From Squalus acanthias (lineage: Eukaryota), in contig CM059432.1 of NCBI GenBank assembly GCA_030390025.1, forward strand, positions 35,652,001 through 35,716,000: a stretch of 64,000 nucleotides of DNA, read 5' to 3'. A program made the position numbers and the translations under genes. The notes under the pieces were generated by a model. That model was given only the letters and a program-made list of their open reading frames with translations, was not told the DNA's origin and made no database searches. Shown piece by piece: positions 4,181 through 61,182 of this stretch (position 1 is the stretch's first letter; every line of letters begins with the position of its first letter).

Positions 4181-4392
4181 TGTGTCCAAGATGAGGAATT
4201 TCCATGCTGGGGAACTAAACACTTTTCCACTTTTGACACCTGTTGTCAGCATCCCAGGCAGGCTATAGCGCAGCACAAACTCAGAGTAAATCTCCTTGTC
4301 CACTACTCTACAACTATGAAAGGTCAGAATCAAGCTTGCACTTGGAAAGCAGATGTTCACCCAATGTGACCCTGAGGCAATTTTGACTGACT

Positions 4393-5243
4393 TTTACTCT
4401 GTATCTAACCCGTGCTGTACCTGCTCTGGGAGTGTTTAATGGGACAGTGTAGAGGGAGCTTTACTCTGTATCTAACCCGTGCTGTACCTGCCCTGGGAGT
4501 GTTTAATGGGACAGTGTAGAGGGAGCTTTACTCTGTATCTAACCCGTGCTGTACCTGCTCTGGGAGTGTTTAATGGGACAGTGTAGAGGGAGCTTTACTC
4601 TGTATCTAACCCGTGCTGTACCTGCTCTGGAAGTGTTTAATGGGAGTGTAGAGGGAGCTTTACTCTGTATCTAACCCGTGCTGTACCTGCTCTGGAAGTG
4701 TTTAATGGGAGTGTAGAGGGAGCTTTACTCTGTATCTAACCCGTGCTGTACCTGCTCTGGAAGTGTTTAATGGGAGTGTAGAGGGAGCTTTATTCTGTAT
4801 CTAACCCATGCTGTACCTGCTCTGGGAGTGTTTAATGGGACAGTGTAGAGGGAGCTTTACTCTGTATCTAACCCGTGCTGTACCTGCTCTGGGAGTGTTT
4901 AATGGGACAGTGTAGAGGGAGCTTTACTCTGTATCTAACCCGTGCTGTACCTGCCCTGGGAGTGTTTAATGGGACAGTGTAGAGGGAGCTTTACTCTGTA
5001 TCTAACCCGTGCTGTACCTGCCCTGGGAGTGTTTAATGGGACAGTGTAGAGGGAGCTTTACTCTGTATCTAACCCGTGCTGTACCTGCTCTGGGAGTGTT
5101 TAATGGGACAGTGTAGAGGGAGCTTTACTCTGTATCTAACCCGTGCTGTACCTGCCCTGGGAGTGTTTGATGGGACAGTGTAGAGGGAGCTTTACTCTGT
5201 ATCTAACCTGTGCTGTACCTGCTCTGGAAGTGTTTGATGGGAC
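4393..5243 (+). repeat. 67-bp minisatellite, about 12-13 copies (three 64-bp variants)
   Basis: Unit AGGGAGCTTTACTCTGTATCTAACCCGTGCTGTACCTGCYCTGGGAGTGTTTAATGGGACAGTGTAG; GGGAC recurs at 4441 and 4508. Confidence 0.95.
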
Positions 5244-6029
5244 AACATTAATCATCCTTTTGTCTCTAAAAAAAAGATCTGAATACAAAGTCTTCTAGAA
5301 GCTGATTGAAAAATAGGAAAAGGCATAGGAGAATTGAAATTATATTTAACACTGAACTTTGATCGGTTTATGAAGTCTGTAAGTTCTCTTTTCACAGCCT
5401 CTGTCATGTTCCTGACCATTTTAAATGAGACTTAGGGTGATCTTGGAAGCCAAAGTTTGAACCCCACTTTTGAATGATGCCCCGTGAAGTAATCAGTTTG
5501 TTGTTTCCCTCAACTTCCTCACCTCTTCTCCGAAAGGTGGAAGCTCACATTGGGGCACAGTTCCATGGTGGTCCTTCAGTACTTCACCCATGAGACCAAC
5601 TGTGAATCTTGTCATTCAACCTGGGCGAGAGGGTATATTGAAGTTGAGGCAAATCTAGTCCTCACCCAATATCTATGTGCATTCACTTTTCAGCATAACT
5701 CAATCCATCAGTCGGATCAGTCACTTGACAACATAGGAATGTATAGGGTGGCTGCAGTCCATCTAGTCAATGTTAAAGTCCTGAGCATATCTTTTCAATG
5801 CCCTCCATAAATATATCTTCAGCTACAATACCTCATATATCACATGCAAACCACAATGCTCCCATTCTCGTGTCTCTTCTCTGTCCACCTAGAGCCCTCG
5901 AATGTTTCCTGTGTGTCTGGTGATCAAAACTGGACATAGCACTCAAGGTTCCAGTCTGATCAGCATATATTTGTCAGGTAATGCAATATCTGAGGGACTG
6001 AAGAGAGTTCTGGGTAAAGTACCTTCAGG

Positions 6030-8545: not shown

Positions 8546-8754
8546 TGACGTAAGAAAACTACTAGGCACTTGGTCTAAGCTTTAAACAAAGCTTTAATCA
8601 ACTGTTTTTCAACATGGAGATCTAGTTGTGTCCTTCACTAGTTTCTGTTGTGGAATGTCCTAAGCAAGCTGGGCCCATGCCTGAGTATTTATACTCTCCT
8701 TGGCTAGCGCCACCAGCAGGCCGCCCAGTATTACTTCATATAAGATTCATGTCA
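8546..8754 (-). mobile_element. Solo LTR of a related, divergent Gypsy family inserted in a 67-bp repeat unit
   Basis: TG...CA ends, CCTGC TSD (8541-8545, 8755-8759); shares the TG(A/T)CGTAAGAA terminus, AAGCTTTAATCAACT and AGTATTTAT with the 194-bp LTR. Confidence 0.85.
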
Positions 8755-9235
8755 CCTGCCCTGGGAGTGTTTGATGAGACAGTGTACAGCAAGCTTTACT
8801 TTGTATCGAACCCATGCTATACGTGCCCTGGGAGTGTTTGATGGGACAGTATACAGCAAGCTTTACTCTGTATCTAACCCGTGCTATACCAGCCCTGGGA
8901 GTGTTTGATGGGACAGTGTAGAGGGAGCTTTACTCTGTATCTAACCCGTGCTATACCTGCCCTGGGAGTGTTTGATGGGACAGTGTAGAGGGAGCTTTAC
9001 TCTGTATCTAACCTGTGCAGAACCTGCCCTGGAGGGTTTGATGGGACAGTGTAGAGGGAGCTTTACTCTGTATCTAACCTGTGCAGCACCTGCCCTGGAG
9101 TGTTTAGAGAAACATAGAAACATAGAGACTAGGAGCAGGAGTAGGCCATTCGGCCCATCGAGCCTGCTCCACCATTCAATACGATCATGGCTGATCATCC
9201 AAATCCAGTACCCTGTCCCTGCTTTCTCACACAGA

Positions 9236-9553
9236 ATCCCCATCGAGCCTGCACCGACACATATCCCACCCTATCCCCGTAACCCCACATATTTAATTCC
9301 CCCTAACATATCCCATCCTATCCCCGTAACCCCACATATTTAATCCCCCCCTAACACTAAGGGTCAATTTATCATAGCCAAATCAACCTAACCCGCACAT
9401 TTTTGGACTGTGGGAGGAAACCGGAGCACCCGGAGGAAACCCACGCAGACACGGGGAGAATGTGCAAACTCCACACAGACAGTCACCCGAGGCCAGATTC
9501 GAACCCGGGTCCCTGGCGCTGTGAGGCACCAGTGCTAACCACTATGCCACCGT
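9236..9553 (-). mobile_element. HE1-like V-SINE (tRNA-derived)
   Basis: Minus-strand A box TGGCATAGTGG, B box GGTTCGAATC, V-domain GTGTGGAGTTTGCACATTCTCCCCGTGTCTGCGTGGGTTTCCTCCGGG. Confidence 0.85.
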
Positions 9554-9984
9554 GATGGGACAGTGTAGAGGGAGCTTTATTCTGTATCTAACCTGTGCAG
9601 CACCTGCCCTGGAGTGTTTGATGGGACAGTGTAGAGGGAGCTTTACTCTGTATCTAACCTGTGCAGCACCTGCCCTGGGAGTGTTTGATGGGACAGTGGA
9701 TGCCTGAAATGGAGAGCATTCCATTCGAAACACTTGCCTCAATGAGCAAAATAAATTGTTGCAAATCTGAAATAACAATAGAGCTGGTATTGAAAGGCAA
9801 GACTGGCCACTACATTGAGAAAAGGGGAGAACAGCAGAGGATGGTCACAAGTTAAAATGACTACATATTAGCACAGGGAAGCAGCTTAAAACTTTTCCTT
9901 AAAAGAAAGGTGGGAATTGCTGAGTAATGTATGAAGGCCATCTCGGTCAGGCTATTAGTAGATGTGAGAAACACAAAAAAAAAT

Positions 9985-10426: not shown

Positions 10427-10459
10427 CTTTGTGCTTAAAGCAACTCCAAAATGGAAAGA

Positions 10460-11820
10460 AATGAAATCCATTGTTAAGGAAGTGGTATCAAGTCACTTAG
10501 AAAATCATAACATGATTAGGCAGAGTCAGCATGGTTTTATGAAAGGGAAATTGTGTTTGACAAATTTATTAGAGTTCTTTGAGGATGTAACTAGCAGGGT
10601 AGATAAAGGGGAACCAGTGGATGTAGTATATTTGGATTTCCAAAAGGCATTCGATAAGGTGCCACATAAAAGGTTATTACACAAGATTAGGGATCATGGG
10701 GTTGGGGGTAATATAGTAGCATGGATAGAGGATTGGTTAACGGACAGAAAACAGAGAGTAAGGATAAACGGATCTTTTTCAGGTTGGCAGGCTGTAACTA
10801 GTGGGGTGCCGCAAGGGTCAGTGTTGGGGCCTCAGCTATTTACAATCTATATTAATGACCTAGATGAAGGGACCGAGTGTAATGTATCCAAGTTTGCTGA
10901 TGATACAAAGCTAGGTGGGACAGTAAGCTGTGAGGAGAACACAAAGAGTCTGCAAAGGGATATAGATAGACTAAGTGAGTGGGCAGTAAGGTGGCAGATG
11001 GAGTATAATGTAGGGAAATGGGAGGTTATTCACTTTGGTAGGAAGAATAGAAAAACAGAATTTATTTTAAATGGTGAGAAACTTTCAAATGTTGGTGTTC
11101 AGAGGGATTTGGGTGTTCTCGTGCAAGAAACACAGAAAGCTAGCATGCAGGTACAGCAAGCAATAAGGAAGGCAAATGGCATCTTGGCCTTTATTGCAAG
11201 GGGGTTGGAGTATAAGAGTAAGGAAGTCTTGCTACAATTGTACAGGGCCTTGGTGAGACCACACCTGGAGTACTGTGCACAGTGTTGGTCTCCTTATCAA
11301 AGGAAGGATATACTTGCCTTGGAGGCGGTGCAACGAAGGTTCACTAGATTGATTCCTGGGATGAGAGGGCTGTCCTATGATGAGAGATTGTGTAGAATGG
11401 GCCTATACTCTCTGGAGTTTAGAAGAATGAGAGGTGATCTCATTGAAACATACAAGATTCTGAAGGGGATTGACAGGGTAGATGCTGAGAGGTTGTTTCC
11501 TCTGGCTAGAGTGTCTAGAACTATGGGGCATTGTCTCAGGATACGGGGTCGGCCATTTAAGACCGAGATGAGGAGGAATTTCTTCACTCAGATAGTTGTG
11601 AATCTTTGGAATTCTCTGTCCCAGAGGGCTGTGAATGCTGAGTCTTTGAGTATATTCAAGGCTGAGATAAATAGATTTTTGGACTTCATGGGAATCAAGG
11701 GATATGGAGATCGGGTGGGAAAGTGGAGTTGAGGTTGATGATCAACCATGATCTTATTGAATGGCGAAGCAGGCTCGAGGGGCTGTATGGCCTACTCCTG
11801 CTCTTATTTCTTATGTTCTT
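10460..11820 (+). mobile_element. Young 5'-truncated CR1 LINE with open RT/C-terminal frame
   Basis: 433-aa ORF 10431-11732 with [40 protein letters not shown] tail. Confidence 0.93.
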
Positions 11821-21070: not shown

Positions 21071-22127
21071 CCGTTTCTGGGCAATAAATGCTGGCTTTGC
21101 CAGCGACGCCCACATCCTATGAACAAATCTAAAAATAAAAACAGGATGGTAGAAGGCGAACTAGATGGACGTGGTCTTTTTTCAGTTAGTAATTCCTATG
21201 TTTGCAATTAAATCTAATGACTCTGGTCAATTAACAGTTCAACCTTCAGACCTAGTGGAGTTCTTGTTGCCAAACTGTCTAGTCTGAACCGTTGGCTTTT
21301 CTCTTGAAAAATGTTTTGTGTGACTTTTGGTATTTGTTCTTAGGATATGGGCCACGCTGGCAAGGATGCATTTATTGCCCATCCCTAGTTGCCCTAATAG
21401 GTGGTGGTAGACCTTCTCCTTGAACCTCTGCAGTCCTTGTGGTGATGGTGCTCCCACAATAGTGTTAGGTAGGGATTATCAAGATTTTGACCCAGCGACG
21501 TTGAAGGAACAGCAATATAGGTCCAAGTCAGAAAGATGTGTGGCTTTTTGGGAACCTGATGTGGCTGCTGTTCTCGTGATTTTGCGGCTCTTGTCCTTCT
21601 TGGTGCTAGATGTCATGCAGCTGGGAGGTGCTGTCACAGTAAGCTTGTTGAGTTGCCGATTGCATCCTCTAGATCGGACATTATGCAGCCACATTATGCA
21701 GTCCAGTGGAAAGGGCACCGATCAAGTTAAAAACCCAAAGCAAGCAAAAAGTAACCTTTTGTCGCAGTGCTGTTCAAGATTAGGAAACCGATTAATAAAA
21801 TCAATCCAATTAAATATTTCATCATACGCAAGGGTTCAAATCCCACGAAACCCAAGTTAAAACTTAGGGAGATAGAAGTAAGAAGGGAAGGCCATTGATG
21901 TAGACTGTATAAATGGATTTATACAGGTTTACGCAGCTTAGCTCAAGACATCCATTTGGACAGTTCCTCTAAGGAACTTAGATGTCATCTCCAGATGCTG
22001 ACTAGGTGGCAAGAGCAAGTTCCAAGAGTAGCCAATGCCTATTTAATGACAGATCCAACAATCCAGTCCCCTGGTTTTGACCTTCAACTCCATCTGTGGG
22101 TAAAGCTCAATTACTTCAGATGGGGAA

Positions 22128-22321
22128 TGTCGTAAGAATGAGCCTTACACGTGGTGAACTTAAAGTAAGCTTTAATCAACTAAAAAGGTGCTACATACAA
22201 AAGAGGTCTTACTCTATGCCTCTCCAGGATCCAACTAATCAGCCCAGTATTTATCCTGGACTAATCACAGGAAGTGATGCAATAAAGTTCGAGTCACAGG
22301 AAGCTGTATTGTGTTACCACA
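22128..22321 (-). repeat. 3' LTR
   Basis: 194 bp, identical to 26414-26607 by manual comparison. Confidence 0.96.
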
Positions 22322-22333
22322 TTCTCCCCCCCC
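22322..22333 (-). other. Polypurine tract (GGGGGGGGAGAA)
   Basis: Purine run directly abutting the 3' LTR. Confidence 0.85.
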
Positions 22334-22384
22334 AAAAGATTAGGAGGCCGGGATGAAGTTCGAGTCACAGGAAGCTGTATTGTG

Positions 22385-25300
22385 TTACCACATTCTCCCT
22401 CCATTTCGTAGCCGCTGGACGAGGGAGAGCCGCACCCGTTTGGGTTCTCGTAGCGGTAGAGGGCCCCTAGCCCGTTTACCCACCGCGGGCCGTGGACCAG
22501 AGTCCGAGTGATCCAGCCCGCTCTGTGAGGGGTCAGGACGATCCTGACTGTGTACTGGTGCCCGAACGGGTGTCGGGCAGGGCTGTGGCAGATCCGTTTC
22601 CGAGCGTACGGTACGGGGTGGATCGTGGCTGCGCGTGCGAGCCCCGACGGGCTCATAGTCAGTCTGCCCCAGGTCGGCACGCTGGAGTGAGGTACCAGCC
22701 GGCGTCAGATCCAGATCGTGATGAGAGGCACCTGGCGAGCCCAGAGATGTGCCTGGTACAATATCATCCCCTGGTGTCCCTCTATGTTTCGGCGGGCAGG
22801 GAGCCAGATCCCGCAATGACACGGTAGATTCCCGACCGTCAGGATACCGAATATAGGCGTAGGTAGGGTTGACGTCAGTGAGCTCAACCTCATCTACCAG
22901 GGGGTCATTCTTAGACGCCCGAACATATCTTCGGAGTAGCACTGGTCCCGGTGCAGTCAGCCACGACGGGAGAGATATCCCATAGGATGAGCGACGCTGA
23001 AATCGGAAGAACCGTTCATGAGGCGTCGTATTTGTGGCGGTCGAAAGGAGGGACCGTGTGGAGTGTAATGCGTCTGGAAGTACTGCTTCCCATTGCTGGT
23101 TGGGTAGGCCCCGAGATCTCAAAGCCAGACGTACCGCATTCCAGATGATAGCGTTAAAACGCTCGACTTGCCCATTCCCGACCGGATGATAAGGCGTCGT
23201 TCTGCTGGCAGCAATACCCCGTTCCGAGAGATAGGCCTTGAGTTCTCCTGACATAAAAGAAGGGCCCTGATCCGAATGAACATAGGATGCCATGCCACAG
23301 AAAGCAAATACCTGCTCAAGGCAGCTGATAACCGTGGTCGTCAGCATATTGGGGCAGGGAAAGGCAAACGGAAAACGGGAATACTCATCGACCATGGTCA
23401 ATAGATAAGTGTTGCGAGTTGAAGAGGGCAACGGCCCCTTAAAATCGATGCTAAGCCGTTGCATTGGCTGGGTCGCATGTATGAGTATACCACCCGAGGG
23501 GCGGAAAAACTGAGGTTTCAATTCCGCACAGACTCTGCAGTCCGAGCACATCTTCTTTACATCCCCGGTAGAGAATGGGAGATTTCGGGACCGCACGAAG
23601 TGTAGCATGCGAGTAACGCCCGGATGACACAACCCATCATGGATGTCTACGAGCGTAGAGGGTGCCATGGCGGAGCAGAATGCTCGTGTGAGGGTATCCG
23701 GAGCCACATTCTCCTTGCCAGGTCGATAGTGGATGGTGTAACCAAAAGAGGCCAATTCCAGCCGCCAAAGCTGGATTTTATTATTTTTAATTTTGGTCCG
23801 TTTTCGATTATCGAGCATGAAGGCGACCGATCGCTGGTCCGTGATTAAGGTAAAGTGCTGGCGAGCTAGGAGATGAGTCCACTTCCGTACTGCCTCTATG
23901 ATGGCTGTAGCTTCTTTCTCGACTGGAGGATAATGTAGCTCAGCCCCTTGAAAAGTCCTGGACAAAAATGCCACCGGACGACCTTCCTGATTCAGAGTGG
24001 CCGAGATCGCCACCTCCGAGGCATCACACTCAACAACAAAAGGAAGACTCTCATCGATGGAGTGAAGAGCCGCTTTCTCCAACTGTTTTTTCAGGAGGTT
24101 AAAGGCTGCAACAGCCGCTGTGTCTAGTGGGAATGTGCTGGCCTTCAGTAGAGGTTGGATTCGGTCCGAGAAGTTAGGAATCCATTTAGCATAGTATGCA
24201 AACAGGCCGAGGGCCCGGCGCAAGGAGGCCGGATTCTTAGGTGGCGGGAGTTCTTGGAGTGGGCGAAGCCTTTCAGGGTCAGGTTTAATGATGCCATTGC
24301 CCACACAATAGCCAAGGATGTTGATGGTTGGTTGTGACTCAATGGATTTAGCCGCATTTAATGTCAAATTACGGTGCTGGAGTGCATCCCAAAATCGTTG
24401 GAGATTGGCGTCATGTTCCCGCTGATTGCGACCTGCGACAGTAATATTGTCCAGATAAGGAAACGTATCCTTTAAGTCTTCCTGTTTGACCAGGTCATCC
24501 ATTGCTCGCTGGAAGACAGCCACTCCATTAGTGACCCCAAAGGGGAGGCGACGAAATTGATACAGCCGTCCATTGGCTTCAAAGGCCGTATACTGCTTGT
24601 CTGAGACCTTCAAGGGTACCTGATGATAGGCACTTTTCAGATCATATGTTGAGAACACCGTGTACTCAGCCAGTTTATTAACCATATCATCGATGCGCGG
24701 CAATGGGTATGCGTCCAAGTCCGTATATTGATTGATGGTCTGTGAATAGTCAATGCACAGCCGTTTCTTGTGAGGTTGTAGAGGGTTCTTAACAATAACG
24801 ACCTGGGCGCGCCATGGCGACGAACAAGGCTCGATGATATCCTCTGCTAAAAGCCGAGAAATCTCAGCCGCAATAAAAGACTGGTCTTCCTGACTGAAAC
24901 GTCGTGACTGTGTTATAATCGGTTTGCATCGAGGAGGGATACTGGTAAACAGTGAGGGTTCATCCAGTGAAGCTGCTGACAATGCACAGAACGGTAATCG
25001 AGGTCGTATATTAGAAATAGTGAGTTCAGGTTTGGATCCGCCGAACTCAATGGTGAGCTTCTTATGCTGCTTTTGAAAATCTAGCCCTAAGATAAGATCA
25101 CTACATAAGTCCTTGAGCACCGAAAGCCGGGTGGAGGGATACCTGTGACCATTAAGTGTTATTTCAACCATACAAAAGCCAGAAATTCTGGTATTAAGTG
25201 ATGACTGAGCCATCGCAATTGCCTGGTCCGATGGGAAAACATGTAGCTTTAACTCTGCAACAATCTGTTCCCTAATGAAACTATCAGTGCTACCTGAGTC

Positions 25301-26335
25301 AATTAAGGCATCTAAAGTATGTCCATTAATTGATGCTTTTGTAGCTGCATGGAATAGGTTCTGAGGACAAGCAGCTGTAATTGGTGTCGTTGCACAAAGA
25401 GTGGCTGAAACTCTAGGTGTGTTTCTTCGAGAGAAAACCCGAGAGGAAGCACGATAGATTTTAGCCGGAACATCTTGATAGGCCCTTACCGGGGCAGTTC
25501 GGTAGGACTTAGCTTGATAAGCCCTCGTAGAGGCTCTTGATAGGCAAACCTTTGCAAAATGACCCTTTTTGTTGCAATGACTGCAAAACGCATTGCGAGC
25601 AGGGCAGAATTTCCGAGGGTGAAACTCATCACCACAAAAGAAGCATTTCTTAGATTGCCAAGAGGCTGCCACAGTGGGGTCATCATCCTCTTCATCAGTG
25701 AAGTCATCAGATTGATCGTCAGGGATAAAGTCCTCCCTAATAGAGTTCACCTGTGGCCTCTTAAATTGCCTGACTGTAGTTAAGGCAGCAGACCGAGGTC
25801 TGGGCACTGTATAAAGGTCTGCATTTCTTTTTGCCAGATCAAGAGAGCAAGCCATGTCATAAGCTCTCTGAAGCTCAAGTGTCTTACTTTCCAGTAGACG
25901 CTGGCGTATAAATGGGGAGGCAAGCCCGCAGATGAAAGCATCACGGATCATTTCTTCACGGTACAGCTCAGCTGAGGCCGCCTGAAAGTTACAGTCCATA
26001 CTAAGTCTGCGAAGCTCTTGGAGGAATTTATCAATGGATTCCTCCGGCCCTTGTTGGGCTGTAGCTAGTAGATGTCTGGCATAGACCTCATTCGGTGTCT
26101 TAGTATATAGTCTTTTAAGCGTCCGAATTGCCTCCTCGTAACTGCCCCATTCCTCGACATACTGAAATACATTCGGGGTGACACAGTTGATGAGTATCCG
26201 CAATTTTGAGTCATCATCAGCCTTGCAATATTCGAGAAAATTGTCAAACGTGCGATACCAGTGTTTCCACACCTTACCGGCTGCTGGGGTGTTTGGGTCC
26301 AAGTCAAGACGCGATGGTTTAAGGATGTTTTCCAT
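22385..26335 (-). CDS. Gag-Pol polyprotein, 1316 aa
   Basis: Two CX2CX4HX4C knuckles, protease LIDSGS, RT (YDLKSAYHQ, LPFG, YLDN), RNase H (ECDAS), integrase HHCC and D-D-E (SIDFKGP, HSDQG, GQVERFN); no stops or frameshifts. Confidence 0.96.
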   Translation of the reverse strand: MENILKPSRLDLDPNTPAAGKVWKHWYRTFDNFLEYCKADDDSKLRILINCVTPNVFQYVEEWGSYEEAIRTLKRLYTKTPNEVYARHLLATAQQGPEESIDKFLQELRRLSMDCNFQAASAELYREEMIRDAFICGLASPFIRQRLLESKTLELQRAYDMACSLDLAKRNADLYTVPRPRSAALTTVRQFKRPQVNSIREDFIPDDQSDDFTDEEDDDPTVAASWQSKKCFFCGDEFHPRKFCPARNAFCSHCNKKGHFAKVCLSRASTRAYQAKSYRTAPVRAYQDVPAKIYRASSRVFSRRNTPRVSATLCATTPITAACPQNLFHAATKASINGHTLDALIDSGSTDSFIREQIVAELKLHVFPSDQAIAMAQSSLNTRISGFCMVEITLNGHRYPSTRLSVLKDLCSDLILGLDFQKQHKKLTIEFGGSKPELTISNIRPRLPFCALSAASLDEPSLFTSIPPRCKPIITQSRRFSQEDQSFIAAEISRLLAEDIIEPCSSPWRAQVVIVKNPLQPHKKRLCIDYSQTINQYTDLDAYPLPRIDDMVNKLAEYTVFSTYDLKSAYHQVPLKVSDKQYTAFEANGRLYQFRRLPFGVTNGVAVFQRAMDDLVKQEDLKDTFPYLDNITVAGRNQREHDANLQRFWDALQHRNLTLNAAKSIESQPTINILGYCVGNGIIKPDPERLRPLQELPPPKNPASLRRALGLFAYYAKWIPNFSDRIQPLLKASTFPLDTAAVAAFNLLKKQLEKAALHSIDESLPFVVECDASEVAISATLNQEGRPVAFLSRTFQGAELHYPPVEKEATAIIEAVRKWTHLLARQHFTLITDQRSVAFMLDNRKRTKIKNNKIQLWRLELASFGYTIHYRPGKENVAPDTLTRAFCSAMAPSTLVDIHDGLCHPGVTRMLHFVRSRNLPFSTGDVKKMCSDCRVCAELKPQFFRPSGGILIHATQPMQRLSIDFKGPLPSSTRNTYLLTMVDEYSRFPFAFPCPNMLTTTVISCLEQVFAFCGMASYVHSDQGPSFMSGELKAYLSERGIAASRTTPYHPVGNGQVERFNAIIWNAVRLALRSRGLPNQQWEAVLPDALHSTRSLLSTATNTTPHERFFRFQRRSSYGISLPSWLTAPGPVLLRRYVRASKNDPLVDEVELTDVNPTYAYIRYPDGRESTVSLRDLAPCPPKHRGTPGDDIVPGTSLGSPGASHHDLDLTPAGTSLQRADLGQTDYEPVGARTRSHDPPRTVRSETDLPQPCPTPVRAPVHSQDRPDPSQSGLDHSDSGPRPAVGKRARGPLPLREPKRVRLSLVQRLRNGGRMW

Positions 26336-26413
26336 GATGGGTGATTCCCTGGATCCTTAGTTCCGAGTTCGTCCAAAAAGTTTGAGTGCGAAGTTTTTCA
26401 AAGTTGATTAAAT

Positions 26414-26607
26414 TGTCGTAAGAATGAGCCTTACACGTGGTGAACTTAAAGTAAGCTTTAATCAACTAAAAAGGTGCTACATACAAAAGAGGTCTTACTC
26501 TATGCCTCTCCAGGATCCAACTAATCAGCCCAGTATTTATCCTGGACTAATCACAGGAAGTGATGCAATAAAGTTCGAGTCACAGGAAGCTGTATTGTGT
26601 TACCACA
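26414..26607 (-). repeat. 5' LTR
   Basis: TGTGGTAAC...TTACGACA in element sense; TATA-like GATAAATA and ATTAAA inside. Confidence 0.96.
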
Positions 26608-26691
26608 GGGAATGATCAGATGTGCCGCAGATGACTATAAGTGGGGCCTTCGTGACTGCTCCCTTTGGGGTTGGAGTTAGAAGATGTAGGC

Positions 26692-26885
26692 TGTGGTAAC
26701 ACAATACAGCTTCCTGTGACTCGAACTTTATTGCATCACTTCCTGTGATTAGTCCAGGATAAATACTGGACTGATCAGTTGGATCCTGGAGAGGCATAGA
26801 GTAAGACCTCTTTTGTATGTAGCACCTTTTTAGTTGATTAAAGCTTACTTTAAGTTCACCACACGTAAGGCTCATTCTTACGACA
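26692..26885 (+). mobile_element. Solo LTR of the same Gypsy family, opposite orientation
   Basis: 194 bp, 4 substitutions versus the paired LTRs, own TAGGC TSD (26687-26691, 26886-26890). Confidence 0.95.
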
Positions 26886-27203
26886 TAGGCCACGTACTGG
26901 GCTACACCCATTGGCAAGGGCTTACTGGTTCCCTAATGGACATGCACAATGTCATTTACTCAGCTATTAAATGGTTACAACACATAGACTGACACGCTTG
27001 ACATGACAATCTATGTAAATGCAATGTTTTTGGAGCGGGAAGCATATGGTGAGAAGCCAGCTAGTTGTGATTGAAATTTATGAGAAAGGGATGGGCTTGT
27101 TGCGCTTAATGGTCTGCTCATGTTGCTAAAAATGACCTTGTGATTATGGAAGAAGACCCTTAAGACTCACTCTCTGTTTGTTTCCCCTCCCCTCCACCGC
27201 TAG

Positions 27204-35859: not shown

Positions 35860-36568
35860 ATTGCTGCAGTTATATAAGGTATTGGTGAGACCGCATCTGG
35901 AATACTGCATACAGTTTTGGTGTCCATACTTAAGAAAAGACATACTTGCTCTCGAGGCAGTACAAAGAAGGTTCACTCGGTTAATCCCCGGGATGAGGGG
36001 GTGGACATACGAGGAGAGGTTGAGTAGATTGGGACTCTACTCATTGGAGTTCAGAAGAATGAGAGGCGATCTTATTGAAACATATAAGATTGTGAAGGGG
36101 CTTGATCGGGTGGATGCGGTAAGGATGTTCCGAAGGATGGGTGAAACTAGAACTAGGGGGCATAATCTTAGAATAAGGGGCTGCTCTTTCAAAACTGAGA
36201 TGAGGAGAAACTTCTTCACTCAGAGGGTAGTAGGTCTGTGAAATTTGCTGCCCCAGGAAGCTGTGGAAGCTACATCATTAAATAAATTTAAAACAGAAAT
36301 AGAGAGTTTCCTAGAAGTAAAGGGAATTAGGGGTTACGGGGAGCGGGCAGGAAATTGGACATGAGGCTGAGTTCGGATCGGTCGAGGCCCTGTGGGTGGC
36401 GTAGCGGGCCCAGGGGCTGAGTGGCCGGGTCCTGCTCCTACTTCTTGTGTTCTTTAGATTTGAGGTGAGGATCAGATCAGCCATGATCTTATTGAATGGC
36501 GGAGCAGGCTCGAAGGGCCGATTGGCCTACTCCTGCTCCTATTTCTTATGTTCTTATGTTCTTATGTT
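35860..36568 (+). mobile_element. Young CR1 LINE 3' fragment
   Basis: ORF LVRPHLEYC...[19 protein letters not shown]; (TTCTTATG)n tail. Confidence 0.9.
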
Positions 36569-37041
36569 CACAGTCTCAGAATGTGCCTACACGGTTTACA
36601 GCCAATTAATTACTTTTTGAAGTGTAGTCACTGTTACAATGTCGGACTACAGCGACACTGTTTCAGCCACATGCACTAATTTTAGTAGAAAACGCCTTAC
36701 ACACATTACAGGTAAATGTACTTCACGCGTACATTTACTTAACAAACATCTGCCACCATTCAGTAACCAAGGAAGTAAAGCACTTGCAACGATCAAAACA
36801 CATTCGCACACTTTCCTTTTCATTTTACCATATTACCAACAAACACACAAAAAGGCTAAAGTTCACGTGCGCATGCTGTGCAAATATGAGTATTGAGATC
36901 ACATGCCCAACGAGGGTTTGTACGTCTAAGTGTTGTTGCCAGCCGCACTGTGATATCCTGATCGAGTTTTGAGAGGCTGACCGGTCGCCGTTTGCTAAGA
37001 TGGGATTTTCTACAGGTACAATGAAGAGACGCTCTAACTGA

Positions 37042-37296
<255 letters not shown>

Positions 37297-37694
37297 TAGT
37301 GCTGAAAATGTTTCCTTTTGAAAGTTACCATTGAATCTGCTTCCACCACCCTTTCAAGCAGTGCATTTTAGATGATAACAACTCACTGGGTAAAGAAAAT
37401 TCTCCTCATCTCCCCTCTGGTTCTTTTCGCCAATTATCTTAAATCTGTGTCCTCTGGTTACCAAATCTCCTGCCGGTGGAAACAGTTTCTCCTTATTTAC
37501 TCTTATCAAAACCCTTAATAATTTTGAACATCTCTATTAAATCTTCCCTTAACCTTCTCTGCTCTAAGGAGAACAATCCCAGCTTCTCTAGTCTCCCCAC
37601 ATAACTGAAGTTCCTCAACCCTGGAATCATTCCAGTAAATCTCCTTTGCAGCTTTACATCCTTCCTAATGTGTGGTGCCCAGAATTGGACACAC

Positions 37695-39698
37695 TTGCCC
37701 GGATTTTCTGGTCAGCATTTGCTGTTCATTGCACTTACACTTGCCCACCGACTTTCTGTAGGCTATTGCACTGCGATTTGCAGTAATTCGAGAGCCAAAA
37801 CACCACGGCGCCCTCTACAGGGGATATAAGAACATAAGAATGAGGAGCAGGAGTAGACCAAACGGCCATTCAATAAGATCATGGCTAATCTTCAACCTCA
37901 ACTCCACTTTCCCGTCCGATTCCCATATCCCTTGATTCCCCTAGAGTCCAAAAATCTATCTGTCTCAGCCTTGAATATACTCAACGACTCAGCATCCACA
38001 GCCCTTTGGGGTAGAGAATTCCAAAGATTCACAACCTTCTGAGTGAAGAAATTCCTCCTCATCTCAGTCTTCGATGGCCAACCCATTATCCTGAGACTAT
38101 GCCCCCTAGTTCTAGACACTCCAGCCAGGGGAAACAACCTCTCAGCATCTACCCTGTCAATCCCCTTCAGTATCATATGTTTCAATGAGATCACCTCTCA
38201 TTCTTCTGAACTCCAGAGAGTATAGGCCCAATCTACTCAATTTCTCCTCATAGGACAACCCTTTCATCCCAGGGATCAATCTAGTGAACCTTCATTGCAC
38301 CACCTCTAAGGCAAGTATGTCCTTCCTCAGATAAGGAGATCAAAATTGTGCACAGTACTCCAGGTGTGGTCTCACCAAAGCCCTGTACAATTGTTGTAAG
38401 ACTTCCTTACTCTTGTATTCCAATCCCCTTGTAATAAAGGCCAACATGCCATTTGCCTCCCTAATTGCTTGCTGTACCTGCATGCTAACTTTCTGTGTTT
38501 CCTGTATGAGGACAACTAAATCTCTCTGAACACCAATATTTAATATTTTCTCACCATTTAAAAAAATTCTGTTTTTCTAATCTTCCCACCAAATTGAATA
38601 ACCTCACATTTCTGCACATTATACTCCATCTTATTGCCCACTCACTTAACCTGTCTATATCCCTTTGCAGGCTCCTTGTGTACTCCTCACAGCTTACTTT
38701 CCCACCTAGCTTTGTATCGTCAGCAAACTTGGATACATTGCACTCGGTCCCTTCATCTAAGTCATTAATATAGATTGTAAATAGCTGAGGCCCCAGCACT
38801 GATCCTTGGGGCACCCCACTAGTTACAGCCTGCCAACCGGAAAATGACCCATTTACCCCTACTCTCTGTTTCTGTCCATTAACCAATGCTCTATCCATGC
38901 TATTATATTACCCCCAACCCCATGAGCCCTTATCTTGCGTAGCAACCTTTTATGTGGCACCTTATCGAATGCCTTTTGAAAATCCAAATATACTACATCC
39001 ACTGTTTTCCCTTTATCTACCCTGCTGTTACATCCTCAAAAAACTCGAATAAATTTGTTATGGGACCTGTTTGAACAGGGAAAGCAACAGCGTGTCTCCT
39101 CAATCAATCAGATTGAAGAATCCTTACTGAGACATGCAGTGTCTAAACCAGGAAATGTAAGTTAGTATATTTAATTCAATGTAACATCATACAGAAAGTG
39201 AAATAAAAAGAGGGGAAGAAAGATGGGATTAAGAGAGAGATATAAGAGACAGAAAGAAAGCATAAAAAAAACATTTTTTACATTTTTAAATTTAGTAAAA
39301 ATCTCCAACAATAATTATAATCTGAAGGAATGAAATTCCACACTTATAAAAGTAAATTTTCAGTGCCAGAGAGGTTTGGCAGTAATTAAGACTTGGCACG
39401 CCATTTCAAAATAACTTATAATTGAATGGACAAGCCCTAACTTTTCTGGCGTATCTAGTGGGTAAATACCTCAACTTCATCCCATTGCATGTATGTGAAT
39501 GCCGAGTCTCTCAGCGAGGTACCAGTGTAGCGAAGCTTGTGGAGGAGCAGGCAAATCGGACAGCAACTTCCTGATTTTTGCGTTTACCTGCGCATGTGCA
39601 GATGTTGCTGTCCATTTTATTCCTTAATAACGATGAAGCTATCAGCGCTTTCCAATCCCCCTCACCCCCCGATATTCTTACCGCAAAATCTGGGCCAA
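37695..39698. mobile_element. Probable non-autonomous TIR element, nested in an older CR1 and interrupted by a younger CR1
   Basis: Imperfect terminal inverted repeats TTGCCCGGATTTTCTGG / CCGCAAAATCTGGGCCAA; flanking CR1 resumes at 39699. Confidence 0.45.
37826..39058 (-). mobile_element. CR1 LINE fragment (same subfamily as 10460-11820)
   Basis: ORFs 37898-38194 and 38551-38898 with [10 protein letters not shown] and KFADD. Confidence 0.9.
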
Positions 39699-39739
39699 TA
39701 CTTCAGCTGAACCCTAACCAGTGATTTCTAAAGGTTTAG

Positions 39740-39952
<213 letters not shown>

Positions 39953-40211
39953 TAATCCTCCTAACTCCTGAGGCAGAGCGGGGGGGTGGGGGGGGGGAGT
40001 CTTTGTGCCCCTTCCACTTTAGCCCCTGATGATCTTCATGTCCTAGCTCAAATACATACAACTCTTAATCAGTCAGGTTCTGGAACTCTGAATCTTCACT
40101 CTCAATGTCATGAGCTCTCAAAAGGATGGAACATTTACTAATATCAGTCTCAGACACTCGCAGGGCAGATACTGCACAGGTTAAATACAGAGTAAAGCTT
40201 GCTCTATACTG

Positions 40212-40825
40212 GGTTGGCGTATAAGAGTAAGGAAGTCTTGCTACAATTGTACAGGGCCTTGGTGAGACCTGGAGTACCATGCACAGTTTTGGACTCCTTA
40301 TCTAAGGAAGGATATGCTTGCCTTGGAGGCGGTGCAACGAAGGTTCACTAGATTGATTCCTGTGATGAGAGGGCTGTCCTATGATGAGAGATTGTGTAGA
40401 ATGGGCCTATACTCGCTGGAGTTTAGAAGAATGAGAGGTGATCTCATTGAAACATACAAGACTCTGAAGGGGATTGACAGGGTAGATGCTGAGAGGTTGT
40501 TTCCCCTGGCTGGAGTGTCTAGAACTAGGGGCATAGTCTCAGGATAAGAGGTAGGCCATTTAAGACCGAGATGAAGAGGAATTTCTTCACTGAGGGTTGT
40601 AAATCTTTGAAATTCTCTGCCCCAGAGGGCTGTGAATGCTGAGTCTTTGAGTATATTCAAGGCTGAGATAGATAGATTTTTGGACTCTAGGGGAATCAAG
40701 GGATATGGAGATCGGGCGGGAAAGTGGAGTTGAGGTCGATGATCAACCATGATCATATTGAATGGCAGAGCAGGCTCCAGGGGCCGAATGGCCTACTCCT
40801 GCTCTTATTTCTTATGTTCTTATGT
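40212..40825 (+). mobile_element. CR1 LINE 3' fragment
   Basis: Nearly identical to 11207-11820. Confidence 0.9.
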
Positions 40826-42390: not shown

Positions 42391-43784
42391 TGAGCACTGA
42401 GTCTCAACGGAATGGAGGATCTTCACCCTGAGTCTCGGGAGGAGCAGATTGTACAGTGCTACATTAAGCAGGACCATGTGTTGCAATAGATTCTGGGATC
42501 TGGATGCAAATATAGCCTGACCAATGGGATGATCAGATTGATGTGTTTAACATGTTAAAGGGATTTGATAGGGATAAGAAACCAATTCCTCTGGTGGGAG
42601 AATCCAGAACAAGGGTTCATAATCTTAAAATTAGAGCTAGGCCAGTTAGGAGTGAAATCAAGAAACACTTTTTCACACCAAGGATAGTGGAAATCTGGAA
42701 AACTCTCTCCAAAAGGCTGTGAATGCTGGGTCAATTGGAGCTTCCAAGCCTGAGAGAGATAGTTACTGTTGTGGATGGGTATCAAGGGATATGGAGCAAT
42801 AGTGGGAAAATGGAGTTGAGGTGCAGATCAGCCATGATCTAATTGAATAGCAGAGAAGGCCCAAGAGGCTGAGTGACCTACTCCTGTTCCTAATGTCCCT
42901 ATGAAAATCTCCTCTGTCTGGTGTCTTTAAAGGTCTGCTGTGAAATGAGTTTGAGCAGCCTCAAACCAGTTCCTAATGGGAATGGGTTCAGGAGAACGAA
43001 GCTATTCCTAAATTAGCTCCAAATTAGTGGCTGACCTTGAATGGTCCTTAGTTCAGGAAAGCATGCTATGCTTTTCATCTCCAATGCAAACTCAACTGCT
43101 TTCACACATATCACATTAGTCAGCTAGACACCACAGTGATGTGGAACTGATCCATATGGACTGGAAAGGTCACAGGACTCATTCAATGTGATTGTTAACT
43201 GATCTCAGCCTGGCTGGCAACCCGGGCTGTACCTGTCCTGGGAGTGTTTGATTGGACTCTGTAGTGGGAGCTTTACTCTGTACCTAACCTGTGTTGTACC
43301 TTCCCTGGGAGTGTTTGATGGGACAGTGTAGAGGAAGCTTTACTCTGTATCTAACCAGTGCAAGAAGCCTAAAATGGAAAACATTCCATTCACAATATTA
43401 ACAGAGTTCACCTTGGTGAGCACAAATTGTGAACAAAAAATGTATCAGCATTTCACCTGCACTTAATGTAATCATGATGAAGATTACGTAAGGCCCTATT
43501 GGCAAAGAATGGCGCTCGTAGGTTGCGGTGCTTGGGAAATCAGGGGCCCGGAGATCCTGATCTTCTATTCATCAGATGTTGCGAGTCCTAATTTCTCAAC
43601 ATAGCGTACCTTGTGAGTGCCAACCCTTACCGGGAATTGTCAAATGGGGAATCGACCCTGGAGTGCTCAAAGCTCTTCTTAACCTCCAAGAAAAAAAGTT
43701 TCATTAAACGTGGTGCCACTTTCAAAGGTGATCACAGTGATTTCTGTCCCGCCTGCTTGCCATGTCATGTTCCCGTGCTGTTAA

Positions 43785-50769: not shown

Positions 50770-52720
50770 ACATTACCATCAAGCCAGGGGACCAACCCTG
50801 GTTCAATAAGAAGTGTAGAAGAGCATGCCAGGAGCAGCACCAGGCGTACCTAAAAATGAAGTGCCAACCTGGGGAAGCTGCAACACAGGACTACATGCAT
50901 GCTAAAAAGCGGAAGCAGCATGCTATAGACAGAGCTAAGCGATCCCACAATCAACGGATCAGATCAAAGCTCTGTAGTCCTGCCACATCCAGTCGTGAAT
51001 GGTGGTGGACCATTAAACAACTAATGGGAGGAGGAGGCTCCATGAATATCCCCATCCTCAATGATGGTGGAGCCCAGCACGTGAGTGGAAAAGGCAAGGC
51101 TGAAGCGTTTGCAACCAGCTTCAGCCAGAAGGGCCGAGTGGATGATTTATCTCGGCCTCCTCCTGAGGTCCCCACCATCACAGAAGCCAGTTTTCAGCCA
51201 ATTCAATTCATTCCACGTGATATCAAGAAATGGCTGAGCACACTAGATACAGCTAAGGCTATGGGCCCCGACAACATCCCGGCTATCGTGCTGAAGAATT
51301 GTGCTCCAGAACAAGCCACGCCTCGAACCAAGCTGTTCCAGTACAGCTACAACACTGGCATCTATCCGACAATGTGGAAAACTGCCCAGGTATGGCCTGT
51401 CCACAAAAAGTAGGACAAATCCAATCCGCCTAATTACCGCCCCATCAGTCTACTCTCAATCATCAGCAAAGTGATGGAAGGTGTCATCGACAGTGCTATC
51501 AAGCGGCACTTACTCACCAATAACCTACTCACTGATGCCCAGTTTGGGTTACGCCAAGACCGCTCGTCTCCTGACCTCATTACAGCCTTGGTCCAAACAT
51601 GGACAAAGGAGCTGAATTCCAGAGGTGAGGTGAGAGTGACTGCCCTTGACATTAAGGCAGCATTTGACCGAGTTTGGCATCAAGGAGCCCGAGTAAAACT
51701 GAAGTCAATGGGAATCGGGGGGATCTACCCTATCAAGCCCCTTCAGAATCTTATATGTTTCAATAAGATCCCCTCTCATTCTTCTAAACTCCAATGAGTA
51801 TAGGCCCAACCTGCTCAACCTTTCTTCATAAGATAACCCCTTCATCTCCGGAATCAAAGTGTTCAGCACCATTCACAACTCCTCAAATAATGAAGCAGTC
51901 CATGCCCGCATGCAACAAGACCTGGACGACGTTCAGGCTTGGGCTGATAAGTGGCAGGTAACATTCGCACCACAGAAGTGCTAGGCAATGACTATCTCCA
52001 ACAAGCGAGAGTCTAACCACCTCCCCTTGACATTCAATGGCATTACCATCGCCGAATCCCCCACTATCAACATCTTGGGGGTCACCATTGACCAGAAACT
52101 TAACTGGACCAGCCACATAAATACTGTGGCAACAAGAGCAGGTCAGAGGCTAGGTATTCTGCAGCGAGTGTCTCACCTCCTGAGTCCCCAAAGCCTTTCC
52201 ACCATCTACAAGGCACAAGTAAGGAGTGTGATGGAATACTCTCCACTTGCCTGGATGAGTGCAGCTCCAACAACACTCAAGAAGCTCGACACCATCCAGG
52301 ACAAAGCAGCCCGCTTGATTGGCACCCCATCCACCACCTTAAACATTCACTCCCTCCACCACCATCGTACTGTGGCTGCAGTGTGTACCATCTATATGAT
52401 GCACTGCAGCAACTCACCAAGGCTTCTTCGGCAGCGCCTCCCAAACCCGCGACCTCTTCCACCTAGAAGGACAAGGGCAGCAGGCGCATGGGAACACCAC
52501 CACCTCCAAGTTCCCCTCCAAGTCACACACCATCCTGACTTAGAAGTATATCGCCGATCCTTCATCATCGCTGGGTCAAAATCCTGGAACTCCCTACCTT
52601 CACCACACAGACTGCAGAGGTTCAAGAAGGCGGCTCACCACCACCTTTTCAAGGGCAATTAGTGATGGGCAATAAATGCTGGCCTTGCCAGCAATACCCA
52701 CATCCCATTAAAAACGAATT
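50770..52720 (+). mobile_element. CR1/L2-group LINE fragment, same family as 17643-20270, with small CR1 insert near 51724-51857
   Basis: ORFs 50856-51413, 51471-51797, 51988-52662. Confidence 0.88.
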
Positions 52721-52734
52721 AAAAAAATTAGAAA

Positions 52735-55700
52735 AAATTATACTCCATCTGCCAAATTCTTGCCCACTCACTCACTTAACCTATCTATATCCCTTTGCAG
52801 ACTCTTTATGTCCTCCTCACAACTTGCTTTCCCACCTATCTTTGTATCATCTGCAAATTTGGCAACAATACACTCGCTTCCTTCATCCAAGTCATTAATA
52901 TAGGTTGAAAATAGTTGAGGCCCCAGCACTGATCCCTGTGGCACCCCACTAGTTACAGATTGCCATCCTGAAAATGACCCATTTACCCAGACTCTCTGTT
53001 TTCTGTTAGTTAGCCAATCCTCTATCCAATCTAATATATTACCCCAAACACCATGAGCTCTTATCTTATACAGTAACCTTTTATGTGGCACCTTGTCGAA
53101 TGCATTTTGGAAATCCAAATACACTACATCCACTGGTTCCCCTTTATCCACCCTGCTTGTTACCTCCTCAATGAACTCTAATAGATTTGTCAAACACTGT
53201 TTCTCTTTCATAAAACCATGTTGACTCTGTTTGATTGTATTATGATTTTCTAAATGCCCTGCTATTACTTCCTTACAGTCAGTCCAGAATGGCTGACCCC
53301 TTACCCTGAGACTATAACCCCTAGTTCTAGACTCTCCAGCCAGGGGAAACAGTCTCTCAGCATCTACCCTGTCAAGCCCTGTAAGAATTTTGCATGTTTC
53401 AATGAGCTCACCTCTCATTCTTCAAAACTCCAGAGAATAAAGGCCATTTTACCCAATCTCTCCTCATAGGACAACCCTCTCATCCCAGGAGGAGCGGAGA
53501 AAGTTGTGGAGAGAGGGAAAAGAAGGAGTCTCATCCTTAACAACAAAGAAATATTAATTCCTGGATTTATTTGTTTAATTCTTCTTTCCTTCCAGGAGCC
53601 ACATCCTCCACGTCTTACTGCAGAGAACTCTGCCAGACGCTTAGCGCGATTCGACAGCTACACACTGAACGTCTTTGAGCACCTTGGGCCAACTCAAGTC
53701 TTTCTTTGTTGAGGTAAATAGTTATCCAATTGACCTGTCTAGTGCAGGGGGTAAAGGTATTTAAGGATGGGGACACCCCTTCCCCACTTACATAGAATTA
53801 CATTGACTTTAGAACTCAGAAACGGGCCATTCAGCCCAACTGGTCTATGCCGGTGTTATGCTCCACACGAGCCTCTTCTTACCCTACTTAAGAACGTAAG
53901 AAATAGGAGCAGGAGTAGGCCATTCAGCCCCTCAAGCCTGCTCCACCATTCAATAAGATCATGGCTGATCTTCTACCTCAACTCCACTTTCCTGCACTAT
54001 CCCCATATCCCTTGATTTGCTTAATGTCCAAAAATGTATTGATCTCTGTCTTGAATATACTCAGCGACAGAGCCTCCACAGCCCTCTGGGGTAGAGAATT
54101 CCAAAGATTCACCATCCTTTGAGTGAAGAAATTTCTCCTCATCTCAGTCCTAAATGGCTGACCCCATATTCTGAGACTGTGACCCCTGGTTCTAGACTCC
54201 TCAGCCAGGGGAAACATCCTCCCTGCATCTACCCTGTCAAGCCCTGTAAGAATTTTGTATGTTTCAATGAGATCACCTCTCTTCTAAACTCTAGAGAAAT
54301 ATAGGCCAAGTCTACTGAATCTCTCCTCATAAGACAATTCCACCGCCCCCGCCCCTCCCCCCCCCCCCCCAATCCCAGGAATCATTCTGGTGAACCTACA
54401 TTGCACTCCCTCTATGGCAAGTATATCCTTCCTTAGGTAAGGAGACCAAAACTGTACACAATACTCTAGGTGTGGTCTCACCAGGGCCCAATATAATTGC
54501 GGTAAGACGTCTTTACTCTTATACTCAAATCCTCTTGTAATAAAGGCCAACATACCATTTGCTTTCCTAATTGCTTGCTGTACCTGCATGTTAACCTTCA
54601 GTGATTCGTGTACAAGGACACCCAGGTCCCTCTGAACACCAACATTTCCCAATCTCTCACCATTTAAAAAATACTCTGCTTTTCTATTTTTCCTACCAAA
54701 GTGGATAACTTCACATTTCTCTCCATTATATTCCATTTGCCATGTTCTTGCCCACTCACTTAGCCTGTCTATATCCCCTTGAAGCCTCTTTGCATCCTCC
54801 TCACAGCTTAAATTCCTAGCTTTGTATCTTCAGCAAACTTGGATATATTATATTTGGTCCCCTCATCCAAATCATTGATATAGATTGTGAATAGCTGAGG
54901 CCCAAGCACTGATCCTTGCGGTACCCCACTAGTTACAGCCTGCCAACCCGAAAATGACCCGTTTATTCCTACTCTCTGTTTTCTGTCCGTTAATCAGTCC
55001 TCAATCCATGCTAGTATATTACCCCCAATCCCATGAGTCCTAATTTTGTTTAATAACCTTTTGTGTGGCACCTAACCGTATCAGCACATCCTTCTATTCC
55101 TTTCTCGTTCGTGTACTTATCTAGCTTCCTCTTAAATGCATCTGTGCTCCTCGCCTCAACTACTCCTTGTGGTAGCAAGTTCCACATTCTAACCACTCCC
55201 TAGGTAAACAATTTCTCCTTATTTACTCTGTCATAATCCCTCAGAATTTTGAACACCTCTATTAAATCTTCCCTTAACCTTCTGCTCTAAGAAGAACAAT
55301 CTCATCTTCTCTACTCTCCACATAACTGAAGTTCCTCAATTCTGGTATCATAGAAGATAGGAGCAGGAGTAGGCCATTCGGCCCCTCGAGCCTGCTCTGC
55401 CATTCAATGCGATCATGGCTGATCATCCAAATTCAGTACCCTGTCCCTGCCTTCTCCCCATATCCCTTGATCCCTTTAGCCTTAAGAAATATATCTAACT
55501 CCTTCTTGAATATATTTAATGAATTGGCCTCAACTGCCTTCTGTGGTAGAGAATTCCACAGGTTCACCACTCTCTGGGTGAAGAAATTCCTCTCATCTCA
55601 GTCCTAAATGGCTTACCCCTTATCCTTAGACTGTGACCCCTGGTTCTGGACTCCCCGGCCATCGGGAACATCCTTCCTGCATCTAGTCTGTCTAGTCCTG

Positions 55701-60599: not shown

Positions 60600-60689
60600 G
60601 TAAGTACACTTTGAGATGGCTTCAGTTCTATAATCTACACAACTCCACCATAATTCTGACTCGATGTCTCCTTTAACGCTCGCACACAG

Positions 60690-61140
60690 ACTCCTAAGTC
60701 ACCATCTCCTTTAACACTCACACTAACCCCCCCTAGTGTTACCATCTCCTTTAACACTCACACTGACCCCTAGAGTCACCATCTCGTTTACCACTCACAC
60801 TGACCCCTAGAGTTACTGTCTCCTTTAATACTCACACTGACCCCTAGAGTTACTGTCTCCTTTAATACTCACACTGACCCCTAGAGTTACTGTCTTCTTT
60901 AATACTCACACTGACCCCTAGAGTTACTGTCTCCTTTAACACTCACACTGACCCCTAGAGTCACCATCTCCTTTAACACTCACATACTGACCCCTAGAGT
61001 CACCATCTCCTTTAACACTCACATACTGACCCCTAGAGTCACCATCTCCTTTAACACTCACACTGACCCCTAGAGTCACCATCTCGTTTACCACTCACAC
61101 TGACCCCTAGAGTTACTGTCTCCTTTAACACTCACACTGA
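60690..61140 (+). repeat. 37-39 bp minisatellite, about 12 copies
   Basis: Unit CCTAGAGTCACCATCTCCTTTAACACTCACACTGACC. Confidence 0.92.
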
Positions 61141-61182
61141 ACTGATTTCCTTATTTTATCCTTTTTATTATTATTTTGTCAG

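Follow-up and report, generated by a model that had tools for sequence, protein, structure and literature searches.

Asparagine in place of the last YxDD aspartate in a Ty3/gypsy retrotransposon and in its animal clade

The YLDN element, its surroundings and its sister copies

The window, i.e., the whole stretch of 64,000 nucleotides that was analysed, contains a complete Ty3/gypsy retrotransposon of 4.5 kb on the minus strand. The 5' LTR (26414-26607) and the 3' LTR (22128-22321), both of 194 bp and of the form TG...CA, are identical, and the target-site duplication GGGAA is read on the plus strand at 22123-22127 (left) and 26608-26612 (right). A single Gag-Pol ORF of 1316 aa (22385-26335) has the order Gag-PR-RT-RH-IN. 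On the same strand, it encodes an aspartyl protease (aa 333-420, 25076-25339) with DSG at Asp346, an RT core (Pfam RVT_1, aa 523-676, 24308-24769), an RNase H (Pfam RT_RNaseH, aa 762-864, 23744-24052) with Asp771, Glu806 and Asp833 present and Asp880 just past it, and an integrase core (aa 955-1051, 23183-23473) with Asp964 and Asp1022 within, Glu1058 just past it and the HHCC finger present. The identical LTRs and the unbroken ORF reported in an earlier note on this DNA are thus both found. Gag and Pol are read in the same frame, uninterrupted by a stop or a frameshift, and this also applies to relatives with ORFs near 1200 aa; the Gag-to-Pol ratio must therefore be set another way.

Motif C of the RT reads YLDN (24446-24457, minus strand, TAT CTG GAC AAT, aa 627-630), the codon of Asn630 being 24446-24448. 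This is the reading of the earlier note, and it is correct, as is its statement that the upstream catalytic aspartate is intact: Asp565, the first catalytic aspartate (motif A, STYDLKS, 24641-24643, minus strand), is present, and 165 of the 167 clade rows have Asp at this position. Asp629 is present too. The PR-RT-RH-IN order found with Pfam is the one required of Ty3/gypsy elements, and the TG...CA LTRs and the target duplication also agree with this assignment; the canonical YxDD, which is typical of Ty3/gypsy and does not define it, is absent. By sequence, the closest solved relative of the RT is Ty3 RT (E 2.6e-48). RT-RNase H was also modelled with AlphaFold (mean pLDDT 88.9). The model confirms the fold, and its best match by Z is Ty3 RT 4ol8 (Z 32.2, rmsd 3.4, 371 aligned); in the Foldseek E-value ranking, CaMV RT is first and Ty3 RT second.

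A solo LTR of the same family (26692-26885, plus strand, i.e., opposite to the element, 4 differences/194) is located 84 bp from the full element. It is inverted and has its own 5-bp duplication (TAGGC, 26687-26691 and 26886-26890), and is a second independent insertion of the family, which may reflect local re-insertion or a preferred target. No tRNA gene is found in the window. Minisatellite arrays with a 67-base (partly 65-base) period occupy 4306-5309, 8641-9731 and 43219-43382, and a tandem array with a 37-base period occupies 60680-61177. Another repeat family, dispersed and encoding RT, has fragments with RVT_1 hits at 10431-11732 and at 56028-56735; related pieces occur within 35861-40825 and 51723-56696. 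These are probably LINEs.

The element is found wholly or partly in 20 of the 24 runs listed (at least half of its words in 19), under eight organism labels, and 84-92% of its 31-letter words are present in runs under eight such labels. Sister copies were compared in four of the 24 runs, i.e., X1, X4, X10 (possibly an RNA run) and X15. For X1, X4 and X10, a single contig runs across the YLDN codon and its differences (7, 7 and 3, respectively) are all elsewhere; for X15, none of the differences listed at 5% or more is at this codon, five table rows being outside those listed. YLDN is neither a read error nor a private mutation: the sister copies of the four runs keep Asn.

The element had also been described as otherwise pristine. 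This needs some qualification: the window copy differs from essentially all four runs at six positions of the ORF, three of them amino-acid changing (codons 476, 1023 and 1285), and its 3' end, where 37 of 39 bases duplicate the start of the LTR, is seen in none of the three long-contig runs. The window copy is therefore young but not perfect. LTR identity, extending across only 194 bases, would set a weak bound on its age.

Three forms of the 3' end (22322-22394) exist in the family. X1 and X10 are without the 39 bases at 22356-22394 (minus strand), a segment that contains the stop codon of the ORF as well as the 37 bases copied from the LTR start. In the X4 contig, the upstream purine tract runs straight into the LTR and 22322-22355 is uncovered. 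The window form has both tracts, with the 37-base LTR start between them, and supplies the last residues of the ORF and its stop. The polypurine tract ahead of the 3' LTR is at 22322-22333 (minus strand). The window 3' end resembles what template switching between the other two forms would give.

Octocoral families are among the nearest relatives by full-length protein, at 70-74% identity. The named shark and ray elements are 58-60% identical and belong to another subtree than the window element. Together, the octocoral-like relatedness and the presence under eight organism labels make horizontal transfer possible.

Asp and Asn among the relatives

Among the 120 best RT-RNase H homologs, 92 have YxDN and 23 have YxDD, with 5 not covering the site. 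The named carriers of YLDN are two octocorals (Paramuricea, Xenia), four crustaceans (Macrobrachium, Palaemon, Oratosquilla, Caligus) and three cartilaginous fishes (Scyliorhinus, Narcine, Hypanus); Asp is carried by Trichuris and Clavelina among the named hosts. Representatives at 50% identity were also searched with HMMER, profile-free, which brought in deeper members as well as unrelated gypsy RTs, and clade membership was defined as at least 36.5% identity to the query (query counted). The 204 in-clade stretches over the motif comprise 127 DN, 70 DD, 1 DY, 1 DA and 5 gaps, vs. 130 DD, no DN and 4 gapped or misaligned among 134 outgroup gypsy RT stretches. For the best 80 of 532 metagenome loci, the site is covered in 55, i.e., 37 Asn and 18 Asp. 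The searches were seeded with an Asn query, thus the share of about two-thirds Asn is not an unbiased census.

Seven clusters at 90% identity were considered, with 15 listed members each (of 45-444). Among the listed, site-covering members, six clusters are uniform for the Asp/Asn state and one is mixed, with 13 YLDN and 1 YLDK. The cluster sizes of Asp and Asn families were not taken as copy number because they reflect how frequently hosts are sequenced. No relative was found among the viral contigs searched. The tally of YLDN vs. YLDD that the earlier note had called for, obtained here by homolog search, gives an Asn majority. Judged from these sequences, Asn is a natural lineage trait, as had been supposed, and the commonest state of a large animal gypsy clade.

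A FastTree phylogeny, omitting the column of the site itself, was computed from the clade (167 rows, 110 with Asn and 57 with Asp) and an outgroup (25 of 88 rows); rows gapped at the site, one YLDY row, short rows and duplicates were left out. The clade has a (starred) support of 100 and its root state is Asp, the deep branches being Asp except for the isolated Asn row P0200. The crown contains 136 rows, 108 of which are Asn, and Asp rows are nested within Asn subtrees; Asn-only subtrees reach 16 rows. Asn arose at least two times on this tree and the switches include returns to Asp. The FastTree topology requires 16 changes, of which starred branches force 10, vs. about 62 with shuffled labels, and a quick IQ-TREE run on 111 rows, whose stars are less reliable and which includes the site's own column, gives 8 changes (6 forced); the change counts rest on these two trees. 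Three rows (P0068, P0071 and P0109) form a small YQDD subclade among Asn families, i.e., a return to Asp plus Gln at the second position.

Switching back and forth many times is thus the likely history of the site, as far as these trees can be trusted. Among 51 columns with 12-20 changes, the site alone is two-state (in a filtered set, where the filter removed one third state). The position may be held to the shape common to Asp and Asn while being free between both. Repeated switching suggests that the Asn form is likely a working enzyme, not damage.

Damage has nevertheless one argument in the window itself. Recurrent decay by CpG deamination would convert GAC-GAY into GAC-AAY, and the first Asp codon of the motif is GAC, next to which a following Asp codon would create a CpG. 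This explanation fails because the codon before Asn is GAT in 23 of 37 Asn loci, i.e., no CpG is available there, and because both Asn codons are in use (AAT 23, AAC 14). Moreover, 9 of 18 Asp loci retain the CpG, and Asn is found in none of the outgroup gypsy stretches compared. With the agreement of the sister copies in four runs, the chance that Asn reflects decay, private mutation or read error is negligible.

Selection, neighbouring residues and a probably working Asn enzyme

The dN/dS analysis of the RT, also proposed in the earlier note, was based on 16 stop-free RT-RNase H sequences. The Asn-Asp pairs are all saturated, thus dN/dS covers Asn-Asn pairs only, i.e., the 8 unsaturated ones. 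The four between-family pairs have dN/dS of 0.031-0.050 at dS 0.7-1.7, and the four within-family pairs (1-10 differences) have values of 0-1.0. Silent changes make up 17 of the 29 listed sister-copy differences in the ORF, where 24% would be expected (p about 8e-5); the 6 that are located in RT-RNase H are all silent (p about 2e-4). The remaining catalytic residues are equally conserved in Asn and Asp rows. These comparisons indicate strong purifying selection on the Asn RTs.

In four Asn loci (L002, L004, L010 and L011), the ORF spans 1217-1253 aa, the LTRs are 99.0-99.6% alike and there is a 5-bp target duplication. The LTR identities of L001, L006, L007, L022, L023, L029 and L081 were excluded as age evidence since they may be assembler overlaps of rotated contigs. 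Purifying selection and young intact copies give good support to the view that the Asn enzyme is active.

The same replacement is known from engineered mutants. For Ty3, D151N and D213N abolish polymerase activity while D214N retains it with a lower processivity, and transposition is blocked in all three (PMC5371799, available part). For Ty1, D211N is active in vitro with a 223-fold lower kpol and a preference for Mn, and transposition is lost; RNase H suppressors bring back 5-10%, and the other two Asp, unlike D211, are essential (PMC2148107, available part). What the earlier note states for Ty1 agrees with the latter source. The third Asp thus appears chemically sparable in RTs of LTR-retrotransposons, and something else must remove its in vivo cost.

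One way around this cost would be mobilisation in trans, mentioned in the earlier note: Asn RTs would be crippled and Asn elements moved by Asp helpers. The transposition block in Ty1 and Ty3 (PMC2148107, PMC5371799) and the occurrence of Asp families throughout the clade are in its favour. It fails because of the selection data, the low between-family dN/dS of RT-RNase H being that of Asn families and the Asn RTs appearing as constrained as the Asp RTs. Intact catalytic residues, Asn-only subtrees of the size given above and sister copies with no Asp variant listed are also against it, as is assembly WLWD01, where Asn is found at 9 of 9 site-covering loci (within the best 80 of 532). Mobilisation in trans is thus very improbable.

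The residues around the site distinguish the clade. Thr632 (24440-24442, minus strand), a candidate permissive residue two positions after Asn630, is found in 102 of 110 Asn rows (8 are without it), 34 of 57 Asp rows and none of 88 outgroup rows. It is the residue that tracks the crown best, with 94-96% there vs. 26% in the deep branches. Thr632 and Asn630 belong to one predicted strand (model residues 181-186), the geometry of which suggests that Thr632 may touch Asn630. In the finger, Ser531-Gln532-Thr533 (24737-24745, minus strand) replaces the Arg of DYRxLN with one extra residue. The whole clade is without this Arg (Ser/Ala plus one extra residue), which is present in most outgroup gypsy RTs. 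The clade-wide differences from other gypsy elements are thus Ser531-x-Thr533 (finger Arg), Gln511, Gly604-Val605, Thr632 and Gly635 in the RT, and Ala776 and Gln834 in the RNase H.

Compensating changes had been anticipated, and such a clade-wide background is indeed seen, but no column was found to co-switch with Asp/Asn: among the 12 most-different columns, with 7-8 independent pairs and a low power, none listed is near significance. The permissive residues are therefore candidates only. The RNase H and finger signatures are common to the deep Asp branches and thus predate Asn.

The preferred reading, with a probability of about 0.8, is that the Asn RT is a working, cis-acting enzyme in a permissive background where Asp and Asn are nearly interchangeable; which residues are permissive is much less sure. 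The element would likely copy its own RNA using the two remaining aspartates. Asp565 and Asp629 would hold both metals, as in Ty3, and Asn630 would take over from the lost Asp both its shape and its hydrogen bonds, so that only Asp or Asn would be tolerated. Earlier changes of the clade (Thr632, Gly604-Val605, Gly635, Ser531-x-Thr533 and RNase H residues, e.g., Gln834) would have removed the cost in vivo that Ty1 and Ty3 incur from this replacement. The site would thereafter have moved between two nearly interchangeable residues, each family fixing one state. The 223-fold reduction of kpol in Ty1 and the end of transposition in both Ty1 and Ty3 (PMC2148107, PMC5371799) count against this reading.

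The main rival, which is judged unlikely, is that Asn is adaptive: it would slow polymerisation, or shift the RNase H balance or metal use, in a manner that suits self-priming or spares the host, the state following selection. Asn is the majority in the crown and arose more than once, as seen above. The partial rescue of Ty1 D211N by RNase H mutations (PMC2148107) indicates that the two sites are coupled, and RNase H residues peculiar to the clade occur together with a self-pairing primer site.

This primer site (26402-26412, minus strand) consists of 11 bases after the 5' LTR that pair with the element's own LTR, at an arm (26457-26467, minus strand) containing the hexamer ATTAAA; the fold as a whole is no stabler than shuffles (z 0.24). 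Upstream DNA is long enough for this comparison in 21 Asn loci, 15 of which have a self-match of at least 10 bases, vs. a maximum of 6-9 in control windows. The Asp members, however, retain it: the three that were scored (L022, L044 and L070) have self-matches of 15, 10 and 16 bases. A self-match of 15 bases also occurs in L081, which has Asp, is 47% identical to the query and is without Thr632. The self-pairing site is likely clade-wide and older than Asn, to judge from these loci, so that neither would need the other. The dependence on unusual priming suggested in the earlier note is not borne out. Repeated Asp returns without co-change, and RNase H and finger signatures older than Asn, also speak against an adaptive Asn.

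Two eukaryotic-type contigs with members of this animal clade, L081:1-3969 and L082:4472-6685, come from bacterial metagenome-assembled genomes, and both have the self-pairing primer site. Their presence in bacterial bins is likely host contamination. A scan of the contig did not reveal the motif in L082.

In its fullest form, the adaptive explanation would be that a self-priming clade rebuilt its polymerase site (Thr, lost finger Arg, altered RNase H) around two carboxylates, the third position being a reversible rate switch, which is doubtful. If true, Asn and Asp families would have unequal speeds or a different balance of polymerase and RNase H, flipping as selection changes, and natural sister pairs would reveal the in vivo role of the third aspartate and the reason for which its loss is fatal to Ty1 and Ty3.

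Comparison with known systems

The last aspartate of YxDD is regarded as invariant, so RTs with YxDN are often annotated as dead. The present results point to a large, recently active animal gypsy clade that uses Asn as its commonest state and moves repeatedly between Asp and Asn. No report of YLDN or YxDN in Ty3/gypsy was found in the literature, which is a weak absence since most subscription journals and Repbase Reports were outside the scope. 'Smaug', a candidate name for the clade, was not found for a gypsy lineage in the literature covered. The available part of PMC6238403 gives gypsy clade names (Mag, Cigr-1, MolGy1-16) and accessions, with no motif.

PMC554778 cites a natural YVDN in BEL/Pao elements of C. 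elegans (Cer7-Cer12), and PMC9094657 reports one in intact hookworm belpaoviruses, including Atlas of Ancylostoma ceylanicum. The available text of PMC554778 calls the activity of the natural Asn enzyme undetermined. The likeness to the window element is the same Asp to Asn replacement at the last position in intact-looking LTR elements (identical LTRs and unbroken ORF for Atlas). The nematode elements differ in being Belpaoviridae with env, where YVDN marks a nematode group and no switching is reported in the accessible portions of these two papers, whereas the present elements are gypsy, from many phyla, with switching both ways. The BEL/Pao YVDN group is marked by a triple Cys-His Gag box, by env in its nematode members and by an RT that groups with BEL/Pao. 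The window element has no env-sized ORF or Pao domain, and its RT matches Ty3 (the trees comprise gypsy RTs).

Tf1 and Tf2 are self-primed Ty3/gypsy elements. By description, the window element resembles them in its single Gag-Pol ORF and in the 11-base primer site complementary to its own LTR. Tf1 is not known to carry YxDN. Tf1/sushi chromoviruses have a chromodomain at the integrase C-terminus; for the window element, Pfam listed no chromodomain family at E 0.001.

The bacterial G2L5 RTs have a conserved DD to DN change at the same site, which the authors read as a loss of RT activity (PMC2602772, available part). They are group II-like bacterial proteins, whereas reverse transcription is indispensable to the window element, the insertions of which are young.

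Ty3 RT (4ol8) shares the fold and domain order of the window element, and Ty3 D214N and Ty1 D211N have the same residue swapped, the third Asp being dispensable in vitro (PMC5371799, PMC2148107). The window clade differs from Ty3 in being without the finger Arg and in having Thr632, Gly604-Val605 and the other signatures. Unlike these mutants, which cannot transpose, the present elements appear to have Asn as a natural, selected state. Why Ty1 and Ty3 lose transposition yet keep polymerase activity is unexplained in the available parts of PMC2148107 and PMC5371799. Several natural Asp/Asn sister pairs (e.g., P0054/P0075, P0092/P0083, and P0103 with P0094/P0097) make both the function of an Asn RT and this puzzle directly testable. 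Natural YxDN in LTR elements is thus already known; what is added here is a gypsy clade in which the Asp/Asn site is reversible and selected.
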